In this document: in pieces, positions 2,623-61,599 of the stretch
Layout: the number at the start of each line of letters is the position of its first letter
Position numbering within the stretch: the stretch's first letter is position 1
Assembly: GCA_002450835.1 (NCBI GenBank)
Contig: DKAM01000008.1
Coordinates: 10,573 to 74,572, forward strand
Direction: 5' to 3'
Source of the DNA: Dehalococcoidia bacterium UBA6926
GTDB taxonomy: Bacteria; Chloroflexota; Dehalococcoidia; UBA6926
Length of the DNA stretch: 64,000 nt
Translations under genes and position numbers: made by a program
Notes under the pieces: model-generated
Databases searched by the model: none
The model's input: the letters and a program-made list of their open reading frames with translations, nothing else
Told to the model about the DNA's origin: nothing

Positions 2623-2686
2623 AGGTGTGAGTATGTTGAGGAAACACTATGTTTATATTGCTGCTATGGTAGGTGTATAAATCAGT

Positions 2687-4171
2687 ATGTATTATCCAGA
2701 TCTCGAAAAATTCAAAACCCTTGCAAGCGAAGGCAACATCGCTCCAATTTATAAGGAGATTCCTGCAGATATGGAAACTCCTGCGACTGCTTATCTCAAA
2801 GTCGCGCACGAAGGGCCGTCTTTTTTGTTGGAAAGCGTCGAGGGTGGTGAGAGGTTAGCGCGATACAGTTTTATTGGTACTCTTCCAAGTAAAGTCGTTA
2901 GTACTGGAAAATCCACAGATCTAGGAAGTGTTGACCCGCTAATCCAAGTAGAAGAAGCGCTGTCGGGCCTGAACCCAGTTCCTGTTGAAGGTTTGCCAAG
3001 GTTTTTGGGCGGTGCAGTTGGCTTTATAGCCTATGATGCTGTTCGGCATTTCGAGCCAAGGCTCAATCCTAACGTTAACGACGACCCTATGGGGGTTCCT
3101 GAATCAATATTCATGCTCACCGATACAATATTAATTTTTGATCATGTTAAACATGTTATAAAAGTCGTAAGTGACGCTCGATTGGACGGTGATATTGATC
3201 AAAATTATAAAGATGCCATTTCGAGAATTGATTTATTGGTAGAACGACTTAGCTCAAGTAATATTTTTGATAATAAAGGGTTAAACCCAGGCGAACCCAC
3301 CAATTATAAAAGCGAAGTGGAGTCCAATCACTCAAAAGAAGATTACATGTCTCAGGTAGAAGCCGCACGTAAATTAATTGAGTCTGGGGAGGTAATTCAA
3401 GTAGTTTTGTCACAAAGACTAAGCCGTAAAACCTCTGCAGCTCCTTTCGATATCTATCGTGCTTTGCGTGCTTTAAATCCCTCGCCTTATATGTATTATT
3501 TGGATTTCAATGATTTCCATATTATTGGTTCTTCCCCTGAGACATTGGTCCGCGTTGAAGATGGTATTGCCACATCTGATCCTATTGCAGGGACTAGGCC
3601 GAGAGGATCTAATAACGAAGAGGACGAACAATATGCCGAAGATTTGATAAGCGATGACAAAGAGAGAGCGGAGCACGTCATGCTAGTTGATCTTTCCAGG
3701 AACGACATTGGTAAGGTTAGTGAGGCAGGAACAGTTAAAGTTGAAAAATTTATGGAAATCGCCCGTTATTCCCATGTTATGCATATAGCTTCTCACGTTT
3801 CTGGGAAATTAAAGAATGACATGACCTCTTTCGATGCCTTACGATCATGCTTTCCTGCGGGTACACTTTCAGGAGCTCCTAAAGTTAGGGCAATGGAGAT
3901 AATTGGAGATAAAGAGCCCCACGCAAGAGGTCCGTACGGGGGCGCTGTTGGTTATTTTAGTCACTCTGGTAATATGGATATGGCAATATGTATTAGAACT
4001 GTTGTTATGAAAGATGGCGTTGCTACGGTTCAGGCAGGGGCAGGGTTGGTTTATGATAGTGTTCCTCAAACAGAATTTGAGGAGTGTTTGCATAAAGCAA
4101 GAGGTATGATGAGTGCAATCGATCATGCAGAGGAATTTACTAATGATCGCGTTCGTGAGGCTAAAACATAA
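2687..4171 (+). CDS. trpE: anthranilate synthase component I
   Basis: 494-aa ORF with LLESVEGGE, PSPYMYY, GTRPRG, HVMLVDLSRNDIG and GAVGY motifs characteristic of TrpE. Confidence 0.95.
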   Translation: MYYPDLEKFKTLASEGNIAPIYKEIPADMETPATAYLKVAHEGPSFLLESVEGGERLARYSFIGTLPSKVVSTGKSTDLGSVDPLIQVEEALSGLNPVPVEGLPRFLGGAVGFIAYDAVRHFEPRLNPNVNDDPMGVPESIFMLTDTILIFDHVKHVIKVVSDARLDGDIDQNYKDAISRIDLLVERLSSSNIFDNKGLNPGEPTNYKSEVESNHSKEDYMSQVEAARKLIESGEVIQVVLSQRLSRKTSAAPFDIYRALRALNPSPYMYYLDFNDFHIIGSSPETLVRVEDGIATSDPIAGTRPRGSNNEEDEQYAEDLISDDKERAEHVMLVDLSRNDIGKVSEAGTVKVEKFMEIARYSHVMHIASHVSGKLKNDMTSFDALRSCFPAGTLSGAPKVRAMEIIGDKEPHARGPYGGAVGYFSHSGNMDMAICIRTVVMKDGVATVQAGAGLVYDSVPQTEFEECLHKARGMMSAIDHAEEFTNDRVREAKT

Positions 4172-4173
4172 TA

Positions 4174-4740
4174 ATGATTTTTTTGCTAGATAATTATGAT
4201 AGTTTCACGTATAACGTGTACCAATATTTATCCCAACTGGGTGCTGAAATCACCGTTGCTCGTAACGATCAAATCACGATTTCTGAAATAGAAGATATGT
4301 CTCCGGAAAAGATTGTTATTTCTCCTGGGCCATCAAACCCCGATAATGCGGGTATTTCTAATGAAGTTGTAGAGCATTTCGCACCTAAAAAAATACCTAT
4401 ATTAGGTATATGCTTAGGCCATCAGTGTATAGGTCAGGTATTTGGCGCAAATATAGCGAGTGCTGGTGAAATTATGCATGGTAAAACTAGCTTAATTCAC
4501 CACGATGAGAAAGGCGTATTCAAGAATTTACCTAATCCTTTTGAGGCAATACGGTACCATTCTTTATCTGTGCATTCTGAACAATTATCTGATGATGTCG
4601 AGGTAACGGCGTGGACCGATAATGGAGTTGTTATGGGTGTACGACACAAGGATTATCCTCTTGAAGGCATTCAATTTCATCCAGAAAGTATAATGACACC
4701 TTCCGGTATGGAATTACTTAGTAATTTTCTCACTAATTGA
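4174..4740 (+). CDS. trpG: anthranilate synthase component II (glutamine amidotransferase)
   Basis: 188-aa ORF with LLDNYDSFTYN, GICLGHQ (nucleophile Cys) and GIQFHPES motifs. It starts 2 nt after trpE. Confidence 0.95.
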   Translation: MIFLLDNYDSFTYNVYQYLSQLGAEITVARNDQITISEIEDMSPEKIVISPGPSNPDNAGISNEVVEHFAPKKIPILGICLGHQCIGQVFGANIASAGEIMHGKTSLIHHDEKGVFKNLPNPFEAIRYHSLSVHSEQLSDDVEVTAWTDNGVVMGVRHKDYPLEGIQFHPESIMTPSGMELLSNFLTN

Positions 4741-4799: not shown

Positions 4800-5816
4800 A
4801 TGATTAGAGAAGCGCTTACAAAAATTGTTTTGGGTGATGATTTGTCCCAAAACGAGGCTTCTGAAGTAATGAAAGAAATTATGGAAGGTGAAGTCACTCC
4901 GAGTCAACTAGGAGCATTTTTAACTGCACTTAGGATAAAAGGCGAAACAATAGATGAGATTTCAGGTCTTGCGAGTACGATGAGGAAAATGTCAGTTACG
5001 GTAGATATCGATTCACCTGAAGAGCTTTTGGATGTAGTTGGGACAGGAGGAGATTCTTCAGGTAGTTTTAATATATCTACAGCAGCGGCAATTGTAGCAG
5101 CAGGAGCAGGGCAAAGGAGCGCCAAACACGGCAATCGGGCTGCGAGTTCTTCTTCTGGTTCTGCTGATGTTCTAGAAGCTTTGGGGGTAAAAATTGAATT
5201 GGGCCCAGATTCAGTTGCGCGATGTATTCGTGAAGCTGGAATAGGATTTATGTTTGCACCTCTTTTCCATCCAGCGATGCGCCATGCTGGACCAACTCGG
5301 AGAGAGATTGGGTTTAGAACGATTTTCAATATATTGGGACCTTTGACTAATCCCGCCGGTGCAGGGCATCAATTAGTTGGTGTCCCTGAATTAGATTTAG
5401 TTGAAACGATAGCTAATGTGTTGGGACAATTAGGTACGGAACATTCAATAGTTGTTCATGGTGATGGTGGGCTTGATGAACTTTCGTTGAGCGGCCCATC
5501 TTTGATGGTTGAGTATCATAAAGGGCATGTACGTAAAACAGAAATAACGCCCCAGGCGTTGGGCTTAAACCCTGCAAGCTTGGATCAAATTCGTATTGAT
5601 AGCGTTGATGGGAGCTCCAAAATTATTAGTAATGTTCTAAATGGTGAGCCGGGCCCACACAGGGATATTGTGGTTTTAAATGCAGGAGCTGCACTTTTAG
5701 CTGGTGATGCAGTGACAAACTTACAAGAAGGCGTACAAGAAGCGATTAAATCTATTGATTCCTCATCTGCAAGGGACCACCTAGAGAAATTGGTTGAAGT
5801 CTCTAATTTAGAATAA
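4800..5816 (+). CDS. trpD: anthranilate phosphoribosyltransferase
   Basis: 338-aa ORF with DVVGTGGD, KHGNRA and FNILGPLTNP motifs. Confidence 0.95.
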   Translation: MIREALTKIVLGDDLSQNEASEVMKEIMEGEVTPSQLGAFLTALRIKGETIDEISGLASTMRKMSVTVDIDSPEELLDVVGTGGDSSGSFNISTAAAIVAAGAGQRSAKHGNRAASSSSGSADVLEALGVKIELGPDSVARCIREAGIGFMFAPLFHPAMRHAGPTRREIGFRTIFNILGPLTNPAGAGHQLVGVPELDLVETIANVLGQLGTEHSIVVHGDGGLDELSLSGPSLMVEYHKGHVRKTEITPQALGLNPASLDQIRIDSVDGSSKIISNVLNGEPGPHRDIVVLNAGAALLAGDAVTNLQEGVQEAIKSIDSSSARDHLEKLVEVSNLE

Positions 5817-22280: not shown

Positions 22281-22434
22281 TCCTCACTTCCCAGCAATTA
22301 ATTAAGGTTCGGTACAGTATAATTGCCATCGTGTTTTAGTTCGTTACCAATCATTCTACTAGCCAAGAGATTCTCGCGGCAAATCTAAACTGTTTACTTA
22401 TTGAAATTCTCCTGTTATAAATATCCTTTAATGT

Positions 22435-22522
22435 CTACGGGAGCTGGGTTTCCTGGCTGAGAGGCCTTAATTCGATTAAGGCGACCGTTAGAACCTGTTC
22501 GGGTAATTCCGACGGAGGGAAA
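22435..22522 (+). promoter_or_regulatory. TPP (THI-box) riboswitch
   Basis: CUACGGGAGCUGGG..GGCUGAGA, then a variable hairpin GCCUUAAUUCGAUUAAGGC, then GACCGUUAGAACCUGUUCGGGUAAUUCCGACGGAGGGA. This matches the conserved CUGAGA and ACCUGAUCUGGAUAAUGCCAGCG.AGGGA cores. It ends 7 nt before the GTG start of the thiamine-binding protein gene. Confidence 0.9.
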
Positions 22523-22528
22523 ATTGTC

Positions 22529-23626
22529 GTGAAACCAGATGTACTGCCAAGGGAATCATTTTTCAGACGATCATTAGCTATTTGCTTAATAGCATGCACA
22601 TTTTTTTTATTTGTTATGGTTATTGGCTGCTCTTTTGATAGTGAAGATTCCACTCAGACGCTAGTGATATTAACCCATGACAGCTTTGATATTGGACAAG
22701 AGGTAATTGAAGAATTTCAAAAAAATCATGGCGCCAAAGTCATTATTCAAAAGGGTGGAGATGCCGGAGAAATTTTAACTAAGGCGATTATAACTAAAGA
22801 TGCTCCTGTTGCGGATCTACTTTACGGGGTCGATAACACTTTTTTGACCAGAGCTTTGGCTGAAGATATTTTTGTACCTTATCGACCTCCGTTAATTGAC
22901 CAGGTGCCTGTGAAATTCCATCTTGATCCAGACTTCAGGGTTACTCCAATTGATTATGGATATGTCGCAATCAACTATGATTTAGCATGGATGAATTCCT
23001 ATAATGTAACCCCTCCGACAGATTTATCTGATTTAGCCTCCCCAAAATGGGCTAGTAGGCTTGTAGTTCAAAACCCGGCAACTTCTTCCACTGGCCTGGC
23101 ATTTTTACTAGCTACAATAAATAAATTCGGAGAACAAGGCGATTATACTTGGAAAGATTACTGGGCTGATCTTAAGTCTAATGATGTTAAGGTTAGTGAT
23201 GGCTGGAGCGATTCTTATTACACTGCATTCAGTTTATGGGGTGGGGACCGGCCAATGGTAGTTAGTTATGCTACGAGTCCTGCAGCAGAGATGTACTATT
23301 CAGAAGAAATTATGGATTCGCCTCCTTCAGGTGTTTTAATGGATAACGAAGCTTTGTTTCTTCAGGTTGAAACAATTGGAATTTTGAATGGGTCTGACAA
23401 TCAAGAACTTGCTAAAAGATTCATTGACTATGCCTTGAATAAGAGATTCCAAGAGGATTTTCCAACTAGGATGTGGGTTTATCCCGTGAACAAGAAAGCT
23501 CTTCTCCCGAACATCTTCGAGTTTGCCCCGGAGCCCGAACCGAAGCCGACTGTCTATTTGAATCCTTCATCTGAAGACCTTGATCAATGGATTTCAGATT
23601 GGGCTGATATTGTTGTACGGCGGTAG
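22529..23626 (+). CDS. thiB: thiamine ABC transporter substrate-binding lipoprotein
   Basis: 365 aa with a signal peptide and lipobox (VMVIGC). It has an SBP fold similar to TbpA and sits directly behind a TPP riboswitch. Confidence 0.8.
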   Translation: MKPDVLPRESFFRRSLAICLIACTFFLFVMVIGCSFDSEDSTQTLVILTHDSFDIGQEVIEEFQKNHGAKVIIQKGGDAGEILTKAIITKDAPVADLLYGVDNTFLTRALAEDIFVPYRPPLIDQVPVKFHLDPDFRVTPIDYGYVAINYDLAWMNSYNVTPPTDLSDLASPKWASRLVVQNPATSSTGLAFLLATINKFGEQGDYTWKDYWADLKSNDVKVSDGWSDSYYTAFSLWGGDRPMVVSYATSPAAEMYYSEEIMDSPPSGVLMDNEALFLQVETIGILNGSDNQELAKRFIDYALNKRFQEDFPTRMWVYPVNKKALLPNIFEFAPEPEPKPTVYLNPSSEDLDQWISDWADIVVRR

Positions 23627-51726: not shown

Positions 51727-52755
51727 TTAACCCTTTAGTATCAATAATGACATAGTTAAGCTTAAGGTCAACATAAATCCAATTACGGCTAATGCAGTTA
51801 GAGCTACTTTAGATCCGAGTTGTACTACTTCTTTTAGGTCAACATTTGTTCCTATGCCTACCATCGAGATAACAAATAAATAATGACAAAGGGAGCGAAT
51901 ATAATCCGATAGTTCTTCATCAATAAAACCTGTTGTTTTCAAAACTGAAAGTGATATGAATCCTATAATGAACCAAGGTACGTTGTTTAACGCACTCATA
52001 TAGGTTGCTGCTTGGTTTTTTGTCATATCTTCTCCAGTTGTTTTCCAGAGGTTTGAGATTAATTGACTTATAACTAATATTGGGACCAATAAAATAACTC
52101 GAGATAGTTTTACAAGGGTTGCAACGGTTGCGGAAACACTACTAACACTTGCTGAAGCTGCGTAAACTTGAGCAACGGCATAGACTGTCATGCCTGCTAC
52201 TATTCCATATTGGTAATCGTTTAAACCGATCATCGGTGAAAAGAGCGGTAAAATTATAATTTGCGAGGCTCCAATAACGCTACTGATTCCAAGGACCGTG
52301 GCTAATTGGGAAGGACTTGCATTAATTATGGGTGCTATCGCAATAGCAGCTGCATTTCCGCACACTGAATTACTAACCCCTATTAAAATGGCTATTTTAC
52401 GATCCAGTTTTAAGAAATAGTGTCCAAAAATAAAAGCAACTATTAGGCCAAGCCCTACTCCCAATATTATTAAAATAGCGAGTGATATACCTCCCGTTAC
52501 TAGGTAAGTCATGCTAATACTTCCACCGAGCAGCAGTATCGATATTTCCAAGAGGTATTTTGAGATAAAATTACTTCCTTCTCTGTGCCAATTTGAGCCT
52601 CCAAGAAAATTCCTAAAGAGGACTCCAACTATAAGAGCCAAGATTAGAGGATCTAGTAGTATGTTCTTTCCTAATGCAGAAGTGAAGTACACTAGAGTAC
52701 CGGCAATTAAGCAAACGGTTACTCCTGGGATGTTTTTCGTCAAAAAATTGTTCAT
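51727..52755 (-). CDS. YeiH/UPF0324-family membrane protein (putative sulfate exporter family)
   Basis: 342 aa, about 10 TM helices, Gly/Ala-rich. It starts 13 nt downstream of pheA. The family call rests on size and topology only. Confidence 0.5.
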   Translation of the reverse strand: MNNFLTKNIPGVTVCLIAGTLVYFTSALGKNILLDPLILALIVGVLFRNFLGGSNWHREGSNFISKYLLEISILLLGGSISMTYLVTGGISLAILIILGVGLGLIVAFIFGHYFLKLDRKIAILIGVSNSVCGNAAAIAIAPIINASPSQLATVLGISSVIGASQIIILPLFSPMIGLNDYQYGIVAGMTVYAVAQVYAASASVSSVSATVATLVKLSRVILLVPILVISQLISNLWKTTGEDMTKNQAATYMSALNNVPWFIIGFISLSVLKTTGFIDEELSDYIRSLCHYLFVISMVGIGTNVDLKEVVQLGSKVALTALAVIGFMLTLSLTMSLLILKG

Positions 52756-52768
52756 AAAGGATGATTGT

Positions 52769-53644
52769 TTATTGATTTGAAAAACGAGGATAGCTTCCTA
52801 AAAGTCGGATTCTTTTGCACACTGAGTTGGTACCATTACTTAGTAAATCGTACGATTCACTTAGAGGTCCTTCACTAATATGCCCCAAAAATTCTGCGAA
52901 GAAAGTATACTCCCAAATACCCGCTGATCTATCTAATTTGGATGGCCGTGATTGGAGCATAGTTGCGCTCAGGCCCCGGCTTGAAAATGTATCAAGTACT
53001 GAAACTAATGCACCTGATTGATTCTGAACGTCGAAACTGAAAGTTGTTTTATCATTCCCACTTGGCTTTGAAGGTTCTTCCTGACCCAATACCCAAAACC
53101 TTGTTGCATTATCCTTTTCGTCTTCCATATGGGTTCTAAGAATTTTAAGGTTATATTGTTCAGCTGCAATTTCAGGTGCGATCGCAGCGGACCCCTTTTC
53201 TGAGGATTGCGCAGCGCGTTCTGCACCCCGTGCAGTGCTAGCCTCGGTTATGATTTCTATTTTATGGCCTAATTCTTTTTCAAGAGCGGCTATATTTTTT
53301 CTACATTGGCTAATCGCTTGCTGGTGTGAATATATACGGGTTATTTCGCTGGTCTCACCATTGGAAAGAAGGTGATGCGCTATGGGCAGTATTATTTCGC
53401 CTACTACACTCAGGTCCTCAGTTGTGAGCACTGCATCCATGGTCGTGCCTACCGTCCCTTCAAAAACGTTCTCTATAGCGAGGACCCCATAGTCTAACGT
53501 AGAATCTTTAACCTCTTGGCAAATGGCGTATGTTTCCATTGGTATGTAATCAGCGTTGGAGCCAAACTGCTTCATCGCAGCAAGATGTGTGAAAGTTGAC
53601 GCTGGCTGGAGGAATCCAACCTTAGGTCTTCGATTTTGGTTCAT
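52769..53644 (-). CDS. pheA: prephenate dehydratase
   Basis: 291 aa with VGFLQPASTFTH, the TRF motif (NATRFWVLG) and an ACT domain with SRPSK. Confidence 0.9.
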   Translation of the reverse strand: MNQNRRPKVGFLQPASTFTHLAAMKQFGSNADYIPMETYAICQEVKDSTLDYGVLAIENVFEGTVGTTMDAVLTTEDLSVVGEIILPIAHHLLSNGETSEITRIYSHQQAISQCRKNIAALEKELGHKIEIITEASTARGAERAAQSSEKGSAAIAPEIAAEQYNLKILRTHMEDEKDNATRFWVLGQEEPSKPSGNDKTTFSFDVQNQSGALVSVLDTFSSRGLSATMLQSRPSKLDRSAGIWEYTFFAEFLGHISEGPLSESYDLLSNGTNSVCKRIRLLGSYPRFSNQ

Positions 53645-53660: not shown

Positions 53661-54914
53661 TTATATTAATTTGAAGAAACCTCTGTTTCCGATCTTAACT
53701 ATCTTCCCTTTAATACTTGAACTTAGAACTATCTCATTTGGCTCGGTATATTTTTCCCCATCGATCTCAATTGCCCCTTGCTTTATAAGCCTTCTCGCGT
53801 CCCCTTTGCTTGAAGTTTCATCTGAAAGCATACAAAGATCTAATATAGATAGATTTTCTTGAGCAGGGGTCTGAATTTCCAAGACGTCTTCCCTTTGTTC
53901 GCCTCGGGTAATTACTCTATTAAATTCTTCCCGAGCTGATTCTGCTAAATTGGCTCCATGGAAAATCTTTACGATTTCATAAGATAGCTTTGATCGATCT
54001 TCTCGCATTTCATGCCCAGCAGTAATGTTTTGTTTAATTTTTTCTATTTCATTATCGGAGGCATCAGTAAAAACACTAAAAAACAGGGGCAAAAGTTCGT
54101 CATTTACCTGGGTTAGCTTAAAGTACATATCTGCAGGTCGTTCATCTAGATCTACAGTGTTATTGTAGGTTTTACTCATTTTTCGGCCATCTAGACCGGG
54201 AATTAGTGGTGTCATTAATACGTGTTTGGCGTGGCTGTGAGCACTTCGAACAAAATCTCTGCCTACCATCATATTAAACATCTGGTCTCTTCCACCAAGT
54301 TCTGCATCTACATTCATAGCGACGGAGTCGTATCCTTGGAGAATTGGGTAAAGGGTTTCATGCATATGTAGGGGTTTATTTTCTTGAATCCTTTTTTGGA
54401 ACATGTCTCTCTCAATCAATCGCTGAACGGTTATCTGGGACGATAATTGCATAATGTCTTCAAGGGATAAATTACTCAACCATTCACTGTTATATTTGAT
54501 TTCTATTGGGTTATTTTTATGAAGATCTAGCACCCGGGAAATTTGGGAGATCCAATTAGTCGTATTGCTAACGACTTGGTCTTCTGATAATTGTTTTCTT
54601 TCTACGGTTTGACCAGACGGGTCCCCAATTCTTGCTGTAAAATCTCCAACTAAAAATATGACTTTATGCCCGTTTAATTGAAACCACCGTAATATTCTCA
54701 AGGATAAATAATGCCCCAGATGGAGGCTGCTACTGGTTGGATCAAATCCTTGATAGATTGTTAATGTTTTCCCTGAATTAATTGCTTCGTTGAGCTCATC
54801 TTGGACGATGATCTCCTCTATTAATCCCCTAGAAACAAGCCCATCAAGCGATATGTTCTTTAGGGTTTGGTTGATTTCTGGTACGTAAACAGAGTCTGTC
54901 ATATTTTGGCTCAT
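53661..54914 (-). CDS. tyrS: tyrosine--tRNA ligase
   Basis: 417 aa with the HIGH-type motif SSLHLGH, KMSKT and a C-terminal S4 domain. Confidence 0.95.
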   Translation of the reverse strand: MSQNMTDSVYVPEINQTLKNISLDGLVSRGLIEEIIVQDELNEAINSGKTLTIYQGFDPTSSSLHLGHYLSLRILRWFQLNGHKVIFLVGDFTARIGDPSGQTVERKQLSEDQVVSNTTNWISQISRVLDLHKNNPIEIKYNSEWLSNLSLEDIMQLSSQITVQRLIERDMFQKRIQENKPLHMHETLYPILQGYDSVAMNVDAELGGRDQMFNMMVGRDFVRSAHSHAKHVLMTPLIPGLDGRKMSKTYNNTVDLDERPADMYFKLTQVNDELLPLFFSVFTDASDNEIEKIKQNITAGHEMREDRSKLSYEIVKIFHGANLAESAREEFNRVITRGEQREDVLEIQTPAQENLSILDLCMLSDETSSKGDARRLIKQGAIEIDGEKYTEPNEIVLSSSIKGKIVKIGNRGFFKLI

Positions 54915-54991
54915 TGCTTGGTTACCTTTTTTGCTCTAGTTAATAATAACTCTTTTATCGTATCAATACCTCTAGGTAAAGTATGATTGGG

Positions 54992-55075
54992 TGGCAGGAG
55001 AGGGATTTGAACCCCCGTAGCCCTAAGGGCGCCAAGTTTACAGCCTGGTGCGTTTGACCGCTCCGCCATCCTGCC
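54992..55075 (-). tRNA. tRNA-Tyr (anticodon GUA), class II with long variable arm
   Basis: I folded the cloverleaf by hand. Acceptor stem: GGCAGGA/UCCUGCC, discriminator A. D-arm: GCG..GG..CGC. Anticodon arm: CCAGG-CUGUAAA-CUUGG. Variable arm: GCCC-UUA-GGGC. T-arm: GGGGG-UUCAAAU-CCCUC. CCA is not encoded. Confidence 0.93.
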
Positions 55076-55122
55076 ATTAGAGGGTAGTTTACCTGGAACC
55101 TAACTATTAAAGCTAGTTATTT

Positions 55123-56142
55123 CTAAATGGTTCTACCCATTGCCGTAACCACTTCTTCTAATTCTTTACGAAGTGCTGGTAATTCTTCAACTGGCAATGA
55201 TTGAGGTCCATCGGATAATGCCTTACTAGGATTTGGATGCGCTTCAATAATTAAACCATCTGCTCCTGCTGCAATTGCCGCCTTAGACATTGGTACAACT
55301 AGATCTCTCTGACCAGTGCCGTGGCTTGGATCTACGATTACTGGAAGATGAGACTCTTTCTTTAAGATTTGAACTGCTGTTAAATCCAAGACATTTCTTG
55401 AAAATTCATCGTCAAATGTCCGGATTCCTCTTTCACACAATATAACGTTCCAATTACCTTCACTAATGATGTATTCTGCACTCAATAGCCATTCGCGGAT
55501 TGTTGCATGGAATCCTCGCTTTAGTAGGACTGGCTTTCGGGTTTTACCAACTTCTTTTAGCAATCTAAAGGCGTGCATCGTCCTTGCACCGATTTGCAAA
55601 ATGTCAGCATATTCGACGCACATTTCTACATCTGCCTCAGACATAACTTCGGTTATCACCATCAAGCCATTTTTATCGGCTTCCTCACGCAGAATTTTGA
55701 GACCTTCCAGGCCTAATCCTTGGAAAGCATACGGAGAAGTACGAGGTTTGAATGCTCCACCTCTTAGTATTGGAAATCCTAAATTCTTGTCAGCTTCTGC
55801 CATTGTTTTAACTTGATCTTGATCTTCAACCGCACATGGTCCAACCATCATCGTAATCTTGTTATCTCCTATTTTCGTGCCATTGGGTAATTCGATCACG
55901 GTGTTCTCCTTTCGGAATTCCCTGCTAACGTGCTTGTACGGCTTCATTATAGGTATCACTCGTTCTACTCCATCTAGCCCTTCTAATGTTTCTTTACCCC
56001 CTGATCTCGTGTCTCCAATAACAGCAACGACATTTGTAAATTGACCTTTTTCGACATCTGCCTTATATCCCAAAGCCTCTATTTGATCGATAACTTTATC
56101 TAGATTTCCTTGGGTTGCACTGTTACTCATCACAACGATCAT
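55123..56142 (-). CDS. aroF: 3-deoxy-7-phosphoheptulonate (DAHP) synthase, type I-beta with an N-terminal ferredoxin/ACT-like regulatory domain (Thermotoga type)
   Basis: 339 aa with MIVVMSN..., GPCAVE, KPRTSPYAFQGLG, IGAR, LKRG, CERGIRTF, DPSH and ALSDG motifs. It appears collinear with the Thermotoga maritima enzyme as I recall it. An AGGAGG SD lies 5 nt before the ATG. Confidence 0.9.
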   Translation of the reverse strand: MIVVMSNSATQGNLDKVIDQIEALGYKADVEKGQFTNVVAVIGDTRSGGKETLEGLDGVERVIPIMKPYKHVSREFRKENTVIELPNGTKIGDNKITMMVGPCAVEDQDQVKTMAEADKNLGFPILRGGAFKPRTSPYAFQGLGLEGLKILREEADKNGLMVITEVMSEADVEMCVEYADILQIGARTMHAFRLLKEVGKTRKPVLLKRGFHATIREWLLSAEYIISEGNWNVILCERGIRTFDDEFSRNVLDLTAVQILKKESHLPVIVDPSHGTGQRDLVVPMSKAAIAAGADGLIIEAHPNPSKALSDGPQSLPVEELPALRKELEEVVTAMGRTI

Positions 56143-56180
56143 TTTTTCCTCCTAAATAACCAACATTGTCTTTTACTCAT

Positions 56181-56214
56181 AAAAAAACCCTCCCATATTT
56201 CCGGGAGGGTTTTT
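56181..56214 (-). terminator. strong intrinsic terminator (attenuator 3:4 helix) in the aroF leader
   Basis: The minus strand reads AAAAACCCUCCC-GGAAAUAU-GGGAGGGUUUUU plus further U. The 12-bp stem ends 38 nt before the aroF ATG. Confidence 0.8.
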
Positions 56215-56235
56215 AAATTTCTTTAATTAAATAAA

Positions 56236-56307
56236 CTAGACGACCACCACTCCCGCAGATTCTCTGCAGTAGTAAATAAAGTATTCTTTAAAATCGTAAA
56301 GTCTCAT
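56236..56307 (-). CDS. candidate Tyr/Phe-rich attenuator leader peptide (23 aa)
   Basis: The ORF from ATG to TAG encodes MRLYDFKEYFIYYCRESAGVVVV. It has 4 UAC and 2 UUU codons within codons 4-13, and its 3' half overlaps the alternative helices. An in-frame TAG lies two codons upstream. Confidence 0.6.
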   Translation of the reverse strand: MRLYDFKEYFIYYCRESAGVVVV

Positions 56308-56313
56308 TTGCTA

Positions 56314-56342
56314 ATCCTATTTGCGGGAATATGATTTGTCAA
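56314..56342 (-). promoter_or_regulatory. candidate promoter TTGACA-17-TAGGAT (alternatively, AGGA acts as the SD for the leader peptide)
   Basis: The minus strand has TTGACA at 56342-56337 and TAGGAT at 56319-56314. The leader ATG begins 7 nt after the -10 hexamer, which would imply a leaderless or near-leaderless transcript. Confidence 0.4.
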
Positions 56343-56465
56343 GAAATACAGAGCTTCGGGAACTATTTTTGGATATTTAAGGGAAACATGGAACTATAAA
56401 TTGGTCTCAATGGTTTTGATTGAGTTAGATCAATAATCGCGCTATTAGATGCTTCTTTGCTAAGT

Positions 56466-56930
56466 TCAAACTGTAAATCTTCCTAGAATCACCATTGTCA
56501 CCCCTATTAACACCAATATTGAGCCTAACACCATATTGACAGTAACCCTCTCCAGTTTTTGTAAGAATATATGGGTTAGCGCCATTGCGACCAAAGGGTT
56601 TATTGCTCCAATGGGTGATGCAACTGTTACCGGTGCGTTGGCTAGCGCACTAAACATGAAAAATACACCGAACGATGAAAAAATACCTGCAAGACCCATC
56701 ATGAAGAAAGCTTTTTTGGGTGCTTTTATATCTTTTTTGATGTTGTTTAAAGACATAAAGAGCAAAAATATCATGCCAAAGAAGATGGTCCAGGTAGCAC
56801 TGACGGAGGCCGGTGCTGTACTAGTAACTACGAACCTTGCTATCGTTTGGGTAGCACCATAGGCTGCGGCAGCTGCCAAAGCCGAAGCTAAACCTATGTA
56901 TAGTTGTTTTTTTATATTGGTAGTTATCAT
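56466..56930 (-). CDS. single-EamA-domain membrane protein (half-size DMT transporter)
   Basis: 154 aa with about 5 TM helices. It pairs with the upstream half-size gene, 5 nt away. Confidence 0.65.
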   Translation of the reverse strand: MITTNIKKQLYIGLASALAAAAAYGATQTIARFVVTSTAPASVSATWTIFFGMIFLLFMSLNNIKKDIKAPKKAFFMMGLAGIFSSFGVFFMFSALANAPVTVASPIGAINPLVAMALTHIFLQKLERVTVNMVLGSILVLIGVTMVILGRFTV

Positions 56931-56935
56931 TCGTG

Positions 56936-57370
56936 TTAGCTCCTATAAAGTACCATTGCTAAGCCTATTACTACCGCTACGATACCTAGACCAATCATTA
57001 AGGTTATTTGCTCTCCAAGAAAAATAAGTGCGAGTATTGCTGAGAACACTGGAGTCGAACCTAGAATCGCAGTTGCTGGTGCAACACCAGCATACTTTAT
57101 ACCATTGAAATTCAGAAAACGTCCGAGCGGGAATTGAATAAATGCGAGCAAAACAAACCATGATATTGTTTCTACCGAAACGTTAAACATTGCTTCATAA
57201 TCAAGCACTAGCGCTATGACTAAAATTAGTAAGAAACCTGTTATTAGAGAGAAAAAAGTACCTGTGGTAGATCCCATATGTTGCATACCTATTCGAGCAA
57301 AAATTGCGCCTGTTGCCCAGGACGTAGCTGCCAAGGCAGCCAAAATTGCTCCCAATAAAGTGTCGCTCAT
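56936..57370 (-). CDS. single-EamA-domain membrane protein (half-size DMT transporter)
   Basis: 144 aa with about 5 TM helices, Gly/Ala-rich as in EamA domains. Confidence 0.65.
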   Translation of the reverse strand: MSDTLLGAILAALAATSWATGAIFARIGMQHMGSTTGTFFSLITGFLLILVIALVLDYEAMFNVSVETISWFVLLAFIQFPLGRFLNFNGIKYAGVAPATAILGSTPVFSAILALIFLGEQITLMIGLGIVAVVIGLAMVLYRS

Positions 57371-61499: not shown

Positions 61500-61599
61500 T
61501 ATTTATACTTTCAATTGCTAAACGCGACTTAGATTGTATCTATCTACGACTACTAGGGTCAAGGAAACAGAGTACTCCTTCGGTTTCTGCCAGATCATT

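Follow-up and report, generated by a model that had tools for sequence, protein, structure and literature searches.

Introduction

Ribosome-mediated transcription attenuation has been described in Escherichia coli for trpL, pheL-pheA and pheM-pheST. These leaders carry a short open reading frame (ORF) with clustered codons for the end-product amino acid, and their RNA can adopt three mutually exclusive helices (PMC11802643; PMC1262725). An intrinsic terminator lies just before the structural gene. A ribosome that reaches the stop codon masks region 2 of the leader, whereas a stalled ribosome frees it. In pheM-pheST, the gene downstream codes for an aminoacyl-tRNA synthetase. In this study, we analyzed a leader that shares these traits, located upstream of aroF, which codes for a 3-deoxy-D-arabinoheptulosonate 7-phosphate (DAHP) synthase, in a stretch of 64,000 nucleotides (nt) from Dehalococcoidia bacterium UBA6926 (contig DKAM01000008.1), hereafter the window. 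The source is a marine Dehalococcoidia (Chloroflexota) metagenome-assembled genome (MAG) with 40% GC. Judging from its sequence, we consider it about 80% probable that this leader is a ribosome-mediated (leader-peptide) transcription attenuator, sensing charged tRNA-Tyr and secondarily charged tRNA-Phe.

The locus also departs from the E. coli leaders in several respects. There is no sequence homology, the host belongs to Chloroflexota, and Tyr codons dominate instead of Phe or Trp codons. The leader ORF lacks a Shine-Dalgarno sequence and starts 6 nt after the -10 hexamer, which suggests a leaderless mRNA. Moreover, the genes downstream code for a type I-beta DAHP synthase, tRNA-Tyr, tyrS and pheA. 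The mechanism is a known one. What is new is a very likely Tyr/Phe leader-peptide attenuator, probably leaderless, that recurs across the Dehalococcoidia in association with tRNA-Tyr and tyrS.

Attenuation of a DAHP synthase operon has a precedent in Corynebacterium glutamicum, where aroR, a Phe-Tyr-Phe leader peptide, precedes aroF (cg1129) (PMC4046766; PMC11802643, citing Neshat et al. 2014). That host belongs to Actinomycetota, its leader contains only three aromatic residues, and the response reported is to Phe, not Tyr. These papers report no tRNA-Tyr or tyrS in the operon, and we liken the two leaders by function, not by leader sequence (PMC4046766; PMC11802643). The original prediction knew of no description of this type of switch for a Thermotoga-type DAHP synthase operon or for this kind of lineage. 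We found no precedent in Chloroflexota, but the C. glutamicum case narrows the claim as far as DAHP synthase attenuation in general is concerned, as do analogous leaders in a Thermotogae MAG and a Deltaproteobacteria MAG.

Two other systems share part of the design. In mycobacteria, a short polycysteine ORF at the 5' end of leaderless transcripts senses the amino acid by stalling (bioRxiv 10.1101/834739); these attenuators use Cys codons and control other operons in Actinomycetota, and the leaderless start of the present leader is inferred. The T-box of Bacillus subtilis tyrS also takes tRNA-Tyr charging as its input and a terminator/antiterminator choice before tyrS or aromatic genes as its output. 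However, the T-box binds the tRNA directly, whereas here translation of codons would do the sensing. Classical attenuators upstream of aminoacyl-tRNA synthetase genes have been reported in gamma-proteobacteria and Streptomyces (PMC1262725), and in 2010 the only groups stated to have known leader-peptide systems were Proteobacteria, Actinobacteria and, newly, Firmicutes (PMC2965389). In Dehalococcoides, the documented amino-acid-sensing RNAs are the T-boxes of ileS, trpE and trpB (PMC2494555). Our literature search on leader peptides or attenuation in Chloroflexi or Dehalococcoid- taxa retrieved nothing relevant; it found only T-boxes documented there.

Organization of the aroF leader

All elements of the leader are on the minus strand, and leader nt 1 is the A of the leader AUG at 56307. 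The elements are the following:

56337-56342, minus strand: -35 hexamer TTGACA, invariant in all 11 aligned relatives.
56314-56319, minus strand: -10 hexamer TAGGAT, after a 17-nt spacer and 6 nt before the leader ATG; T1, A2 and T6 are invariant.
56236-56307, minus strand: leader ORF of 23 codons plus UAG (56238-56236), with its ATG at 56307; the product is MRLYDFKEYFIYYCRESAGVVVV.
56269-56298, minus strand: regulatory codon cluster, codons 4-13, with Tyr4, Phe6, Tyr9, Phe10, Tyr12 and Tyr13.
56263-56275, minus strand: region 1 (leader nt 33-45), which overlaps the tandem Tyr codons and supplies the 5' strand of the anti-antiterminator.
56246-56259, minus strand: region 2 (leader nt 49-62), the alternative partner of region 1 or region 3, inside the ORF.
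56202-56214, minus strand: region 3 (leader nt 94-106), the terminator 5' arm AAAAACCCUCCCG, whose GC core also pairs with region 2.
56181-56195, minus strand: region 4, the terminator 3' arm UGGGAGGGUUUUU, and the rest of the U7 tract.

The promoter and the Tyr/Phe-rich ORF are present as originally described. TTGACA-17-TAGGAT matches 10 of the 12 consensus positions and is the joint best promoter-like (sigma-70-like) site in the 8 kb scanned. The ORF cannot be longer and its start is fixed, because an in-frame TAG lies two codons upstream of the ATG. Tyr codons 4, 9, 12 and 13 are all UAC, and Phe codons 6 and 10 are both UUU. Such a concentration of aromatic codons is rare: at least six Tyr or Phe per 10 codons occur in only 3 of the 1124 short ORFs (12-45 codons) of the window, and the other two are antisense inside coding genes. 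Tyr and Phe together make up 6.6% of the codons in the long ORFs of the window, which gives a binomial P = 1.4e-5 for 6 of 10. The uniform choice of UAC is a separate observation, since UAU accounts for 65% of the Tyr codons in the window genes (P about 0.015). The tandem UAC-UAC sits in helix 1:2, and RNA structure may be the cause of this preference.

The three helices and the U tract of the original prediction were also recovered, with energies and shuffle statistics beyond chance. Helix 1:2 pairs CUGCAG with CUGCGG (56269-56253), and RNAfold extends it to 12 bp (nt 33-45 with nt 49-61) at -12.2 kcal/mol (z = -4.5). Helix 2:3 pairs CGGGAG(U)GGU (56255-56246) with ACCCUCCCG (56210-56202), that is, nt 53-62 with nt 98-106, through 9 bp and one bulge. 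As a duplex it reaches -15.2 kcal/mol against a dinucleotide-shuffle mean of -7.6, outperforming 99.6% of the shuffles (P = 0.004), and constrained folding of the nascent RNA with a stalled ribosome gives -15.5 to -16.0 kcal/mol. Helix 3:4 comprises 13 bp (56214-56183), with U's running to 56181 (U7), at -20.1 kcal/mol (z = -4.0), and 38 nt separate the end of the U7 tract from the aroF ATG (56142). The 127-nt leader as a whole folds at -41.3 kcal/mol (z = -5.4); none of 200 shuffles was as good.

Initiation of the leader ORF

No Shine-Dalgarno sequence was found before the leader ORF in the window. In 11 leaders, the start codon lies 6-10 nt after the conserved -10. The leader ORFs of L056 and L013 (L numbers denote the loci compared) carry a Shine-Dalgarno sequence instead. 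Two ways of initiation had been put forward, a leaderless mRNA or the use of the AGGA inside TAGGAT as a Shine-Dalgarno sequence. The second was discarded, as AGGA is missing from the -10 variants TACGAT (L027, a strain variant 99% identical to the window, and L004), TAGAGT (L028) and TAGGCT (L059), all of which keep TAnnnT. The middle bases vary and TAnnnT stays, so the element is conserved as a -10 and not as a Shine-Dalgarno sequence. The leaderless option agrees with the spacing between promoter and start, from which the leader mRNA is probably leaderless or nearly so.

Geometry and folding of the proposed switch

In the window, 13 nt separate Tyr13 from the start of region 2, and region 2 stops 7 nt short of the UAG. 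To compare leaders, region 2 was located in each of them as the best partner of the terminator 5' arm. In all Dehalococcoidia leaders it falls inside the ORF, with its start 10-17 nt past the final aromatic codon of the cluster and its end 6-19 nt short of the stop. This is the geometry demanded by the classical model.

Folding with a ribosome footprint as constraint reproduced the predicted switch in 16 of the 16 Dehalococcoidia leaders folded. When the ribosome is placed in the codon cluster, upstream pairing takes up 5-20 nt of the terminator 5' arm; the number varies with the codon and is 8-20 nt at most codons of the cluster. When it is placed at the stop codon, only 0-8 nt of the arm pair upstream, and weakly (-9 kcal/mol or weaker). 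The trpL/pheL-type logic thus holds in these folds, a stalled ribosome giving the antiterminator and a ribosome at the stop codon the terminator. In the subclade of the window, ribosome-free RNA forms helix 1:2 and then terminates.

These data are consistent with the following sequence of events. Transcription would start at the A of the leader AUG (56307) or at a neighboring nucleotide, and a 70S ribosome would load on the leaderless mRNA. With Tyr-tRNA and Phe-tRNA plentiful, the ribosome is expected to reach the UAG and to cover nt 53-62 of region 2. Region 3 would then pair with region 4, and the terminator (-20 kcal/mol plus U7) would halt the polymerase 38 nt before aroF. Under a shortage of Tyr-tRNA, the ribosome would stall in codons 9-13 (YFIYY), melting region 1 and leaving region 2 exposed. 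As long as region 4 has not been transcribed, region 2 could then pair with the GC core of region 3, and the polymerase would read through into aroF and probably tRNA-Tyr, tyrS and pheA. In the window subclade, untranslated RNA would form helices 1:2 and 3:4 and end in termination.

Conservation of the leader in Dehalococcoidia

We collected 15 distinct Dehalococcoidia/Chloroflexota aroF upstream regions from genome and metagenome scans and from aroF homologue look-ups; their aroF products are 60-94% identical to that of the window. Contigs CEOQ01045058, MDTE01115732 and Ga0310344_10000109 match the window at 99-100% aroF identity. In 14 of these 15 lineages, a short ORF in which Tyr/Phe(/Trp) codons cluster lies upstream of aroF with a terminator behind it, and an alternative pairing that uses the terminator 5' arm also recurs. 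The nucleotide sequences of the 14 leaders are almost unrelated, and their GC content differs widely. The leader peptides, or their clusters in more distant relatives, are these:

L001 and L006 (low GC): MKVYDLKEYFIYYRRESVGVV(V/I)V.
L028-30 (low GC): MNYQTFKYYFMYADGICTAEVFSRSR.
L059-63 (low GC): MARSAYYYF(A/T)FTYARE(M/T)GAATAIE, with MARSAYYYFAFTYAREMGAATAIE in L059.
L002 (high GC): VMASRGYRYYAFRRPPWGGPPVLSI.
L003 (high GC): VMIGTGYRYYYFSYPLRGGSPVLPV.
L004 (high GC): MTTGALQYPGYYAFRRPERGGALMTSG.
L005 (high GC): VMIGAGYCYSYFSRPLRGGAPVSLV.
L055 (more distant, Phe-rich), cluster: ...GFAFIYPRF...
L056 (more distant, Phe-rich), cluster: ...SFTGFVFSYSRF...
L052 (more distant), cluster: ...IWFAF...
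L053 (more distant), cluster: ...WSYYRFFY...
L054 (more distant), cluster: ...LYFWSFY...
L058 (more distant), cluster: ...WFGFYYFYF...

A MAFFT alignment of 11 leaders left as invariant only the -35, the T, A and T of the -10, the ATG, UUU-A in the codon cluster and the terminator core. Everything outside these columns differs, GC content included. Conservation confined to the hexamers of the promoter, the start codon, codons for aromatic residues and the core of the terminator points to a translated codon sensor rather than to an aptamer or a protein-binding site.

Across clades, the helices are out of register in the MAFFT alignment. Hence, per-sequence constrained folds and a pairwise substitution audit were used in place of formal covariation counts. 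The close relatives L001 and L006 keep YFIYY, in L006 with a synonymous UAC>UAU change. Compared with the window, 3 of 16 substitutions in L001 and 3 of 13 in L006 fall in the 52 paired positions, and all of them keep pairing. One such change, C53>U, remains pairable with both of its partners, G41 and G106. The substitutions at paired sites alter amino acids (Cys>Arg, Ala>Val), and the Tyr codons stay. In addition, a comparison by eye of the L028 terminator with that of the window revealed paired changes.

These comparisons bear on the possibility that the leader is translated but acts by nascent-peptide arrest (TnaC- or SecM-like), through Rho or by translational coupling, rather than through codons that report tRNA charging. 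Aromatic-rich nascent chains can interact with the exit tunnel, and the C-terminal VVVV is conserved in the closest relatives. However, the peptide outside the aromatic cluster is not conserved between clades. The last four leader codons, which code for VVVV, coincide with region 2, and their conservation is therefore explained by RNA pairing. Rho is not needed either, because every lineage has an intrinsic terminator with a U-tract. Altogether, we give these mechanisms very little weight.

We also considered whether the hairpin is constitutive, either a partial terminator or insulator after the upstream EamA genes or an mRNA-stabilizing 5' structure, with the aromatic ORF as an AT-rich by-product. 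The terminator is bidirectional in the window, where the scan detected it on the plus strand, and it lies 250 nt downstream of a co-oriented EamA gene; the two antisense ORFs mentioned above reach the same aromatic score by chance. Nevertheless, the gene upstream of the leader is divergent in L002-L005 and the promoter-ORF-terminator unit is kept there, which indicates that the terminator does not belong to that gene and that the unit belongs to aroF. The unit is also kept in GC-rich genomes, whose composition does not favor aromatic codons. Moreover, the 38 nt between terminator and aroF are too short for a promoter, and the complementarity of regions 2 and 3 exceeds that of shuffles. A constitutive hairpin is thus very improbable compared with an attenuator that responds to translation of the leader.

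Other phyla and other RNA classes

As controls, we inspected 28 loci from other phyla and archaea with aroF about 50% identical to that of the window. A comparable aromatic ORF with a terminator was found in 2 of the 28, in both cases directly upstream of an I-beta DAHP synthase gene, and a weak match in L007 is probably due to chance. The two leaders are:

L013 (Thermotogae MAG), about 2700-3000: MRENLFINRNTFEYYYFRSNRIRP (FEYYYF), with a Shine-Dalgarno sequence and a strong terminator.
L022 (Deltaproteobacteria MAG), about 2700-2860: MNFVARTSAYAFAYFYFADGRAP (AYAFAYFYF), with a strong terminator.

As a predicted element, the aromatic-leader design is therefore patchily present in other phyla.

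Rfam searches of the whole window at the gathering threshold retrieved only a TPP (thiamine pyrophosphate) riboswitch and tRNA, and those of 18 related loci only tRNAs. A permissive scan of 55900-56800 gave only sub-threshold, terminator-driven matches to many leader and sRNA (small RNA) models. Membership of Phe_leader (RF01859) was rejected, as the score of 30.7 bits is below the threshold of 55 (E = 0.0057 in the 901-nt search); this likeness is one of architecture only, not of homology. A T-box (RF00230) or another riboswitch was rejected as well, with no T-box match at E<=10 in 55900-56800 and none in the 18 relatives. The leader contains no Stem I, specifier loop or T-box sequence, and only about 50 nt precede region 2.

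These searches also concern the idea that the attenuator is real but one of its alternative helices is stabilized by another sensor, with an ORF that is incidental or untranslated. This sensor would be a TRAP- or PyrR-like RNA-binding protein, an uncharged tRNA in a minimal T-box-like contact, or a small ligand. The lack of a Shine-Dalgarno sequence would suit such a sensor, T-boxes are the documented amino-acid-sensing RNA of Dehalococcoides ileS, trpE and trpB (PMC2494555), and region 2 contains GUGGUGGU, which bears a faint likeness to the UGGN bulge of T-boxes. On the other hand, no T-box matches at E<=10 and no other family above threshold, nor does either in the 18 related loci, and the distance from promoter to region 2 is far too short for a Stem I. 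The GUGGUGG string is missing from other clades, and there is no conservation across clades of the kind expected of an aptamer or a protein site. What is conserved is an open frame right after the -10 with aromatic codons, including the synonymous UAC>UAU change. A sensor other than the ribosome is accordingly unlikely.

The aroF gene cluster

The genes of the locus, all on the minus strand, are as follows:

55123-56142, minus strand: aroF, for a DAHP synthase of type I-beta whose N-terminal regulatory domain is ferredoxin-like (PF00793, 3e-81; PF18152, 2.9e-19).
56148-56153, minus strand: canonical Shine-Dalgarno sequence of aroF, AGGAGG, outside the terminator and not sequestered by it.
54988-55076, minus strand: tRNA-Tyr (anticodon GTA), 46 nt past the aroF stop.
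53661-54914, minus strand: tyrS, tyrosyl-tRNA synthetase.
52769-53644, minus strand: pheA, prephenate dehydratase, 16 nt past tyrS.
51727-52755, minus strand: PF03601 membrane protein gene, 13 nt past pheA; syntenic in L001, L006, L027 and L029.

This gene content (aroF, tRNA-Tyr, tyrS and pheA) fits a Tyr/Phe sensor. Feedback inhibition of Thermotoga-type DAHP synthases is exerted mainly by Tyr, via the same N-terminal domain. The terminator scan found no terminator-like site on the leader strand between aroF and tyrS. The tRNA-Tyr gene is probably in the same transcription unit as aroF, and tRNA-Tyr, tyrS and pheA are probably under the control of the attenuator; the extent of the regulated transcript is an inference. 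The PF03601 gene is possibly the last of the operon.

The same arrangement recurs in relatives. Eleven of them (L001, L006, L027, L029, L059, L063, L002, L004, L005, L055 and L056) have a tRNA-Tyr within about 100 nt downstream of aroF, at locus positions of about 4063-4196. In L003 it is about 2.7 kb downstream of aroF. With the exception of L003, tyrS and pheA follow aroF in every relative whose locus is long enough. The gene list of the contig for P0006 displays matching synteny, plus a 35-aa ORF called upstream of aroF.

A TAnnnT-like box is conserved about 10 nt upstream of the 5' end of tRNA-Tyr (TAAACT, TAAGAT, TAGAAT, TACAAT and TACCAT). It may represent an internal promoter or a processing signal.

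The tyrS product varies among relatives. In several of them it has 686-700 aa and carries a B3_4 domain of the PheRS-beta type (PF03483) fused to the N-terminal side of TyrRS, as in L059 (4188-6263) and L055 (4223-6283) and also in L002, L004 and L005, where the match to tyrS begins at about 5020-5050. The tyrS genes of the window, L001, L006 and L029 code for 417 aa and lack the B3_4 domain.

Weighing the proposed attenuator

Several findings weigh against the proposed attenuator or limit its reach. Helix 2:3 (-15.5 kcal/mol, with a 35-nt loop) is weaker than helix 3:4 (-20.1 kcal/mol), and hence the switch must be kinetic. Helix 1:2 is not general, being weak or absent in several relatives, and in many of them the folds place ribosome-free nascent RNA already in the antiterminator state. 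In several GC-rich relatives, the 2:3 pairing is no better than that of shuffles (P 0.1-0.56). No double compensatory changes were found by the pairwise audit in the close clade, only one-sided changes of the wobble type. The comparison of relatives suggested in the original prediction nonetheless came out in its favor, with the short aromatic ORF in 14 of the 15 lineages. The remaining lineage, L057 (Chloroflexota, 62% aroF identity), is syntenic with L054 and has no aromatic leader ORF at 2670-3000; there the attenuator looks to have been lost or replaced. Leaderless genes were detected in 4 of 12 Chloroflexi genomes, with an estimated share of only about 5% in those four (PMC3160421), which means that the leaderless mode exists in some Chloroflexi and is not dominant. 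Finally, if the TAnnnT box upstream of tRNA-Tyr acts as an internal promoter, tRNA-Tyr, tyrS and pheA may in part escape control by the attenuator.

A broader proposal is that the leaders form an undescribed, Dehalococcoidia-wide family of leaderless aromatic attenuators. In one subclade, aroF, tRNA-Tyr, tyrS and pheA would come under a single Tyr-codon sensor in a closed loop of supply and demand, doing the job that the T-box does for tyrS in Firmicutes, and the family would probably have an origin independent from the proteobacterial and actinobacterial attenuators. We advance this proposal tentatively, at somewhat less than even odds.

If the attenuator operates as proposed, classical ribosome-mediated attenuation would extend to Chloroflexota (Dehalococcoidia), and the leader would be a rare example of a mainly tyrosine-sensing one. 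The same solution would stand before a Thermotoga-type DAHP synthase in at least three phyla (Dehalococcoidia, the Thermotogae MAG and the Deltaproteobacteria MAG). A leaderless start would imply that loading of 70S ribosomes on a 5' AUG is coupled to transcription tightly enough for attenuation outside Actinomycetota. The aroF-tRNA-Tyr-tyrS-pheA linkage suggests joint control of amino acid synthesis, tRNA and synthetase. The leader would also provide an annotation rule for short upstream ORFs in uncultured marine and subsurface Dehalococcoidia, and, from the side of regulation, a hint that these organisms synthesize aromatic amino acids themselves and tune this to supply.

Additional observations

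The gene upstream of the leader is a co-oriented EamA gene with its stop at 56466, and the leader occupies the gap between this gene and the aroF ATG at 56142. Two adjacent half-size EamA genes, coding for 144 and 154 aa with one EamA domain each, are located at 56466-57370 (minus strand). The same pair is called in relatives L056 and L059-L063, and we therefore regard it as a conserved two-gene transporter and not as a frameshift. Between these genes and the promoter, at 56406-56434 (minus strand), there is a perfect inverted repeat CTCAAT-N7-ATTGAG (56424-56406), with a second ATTGA/TCAAT pair overlapping it. Located about 65-90 nt upstream of the leader -35, the repeat is kept in L001 and L006. 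It may serve as an operator or form a stem-loop downstream of the EamA genes.

A scan of 15 intergenic gaps of the window for other short ORFs enriched in a single amino acid gave nothing convincing. At 61518-61598 (minus strand), a 26-codon ORF, MIWQKPKEYSVSLTLVVVDRYNLSRV, has three consecutive Val codons and ends 18 nt before valS. This leaves no room for a terminator, and the ORF is possibly there by chance. The TPP riboswitch (RF00059) of the window is located at 22427-22537 on the plus strand and scores 60.9 bits, above the gathering score.

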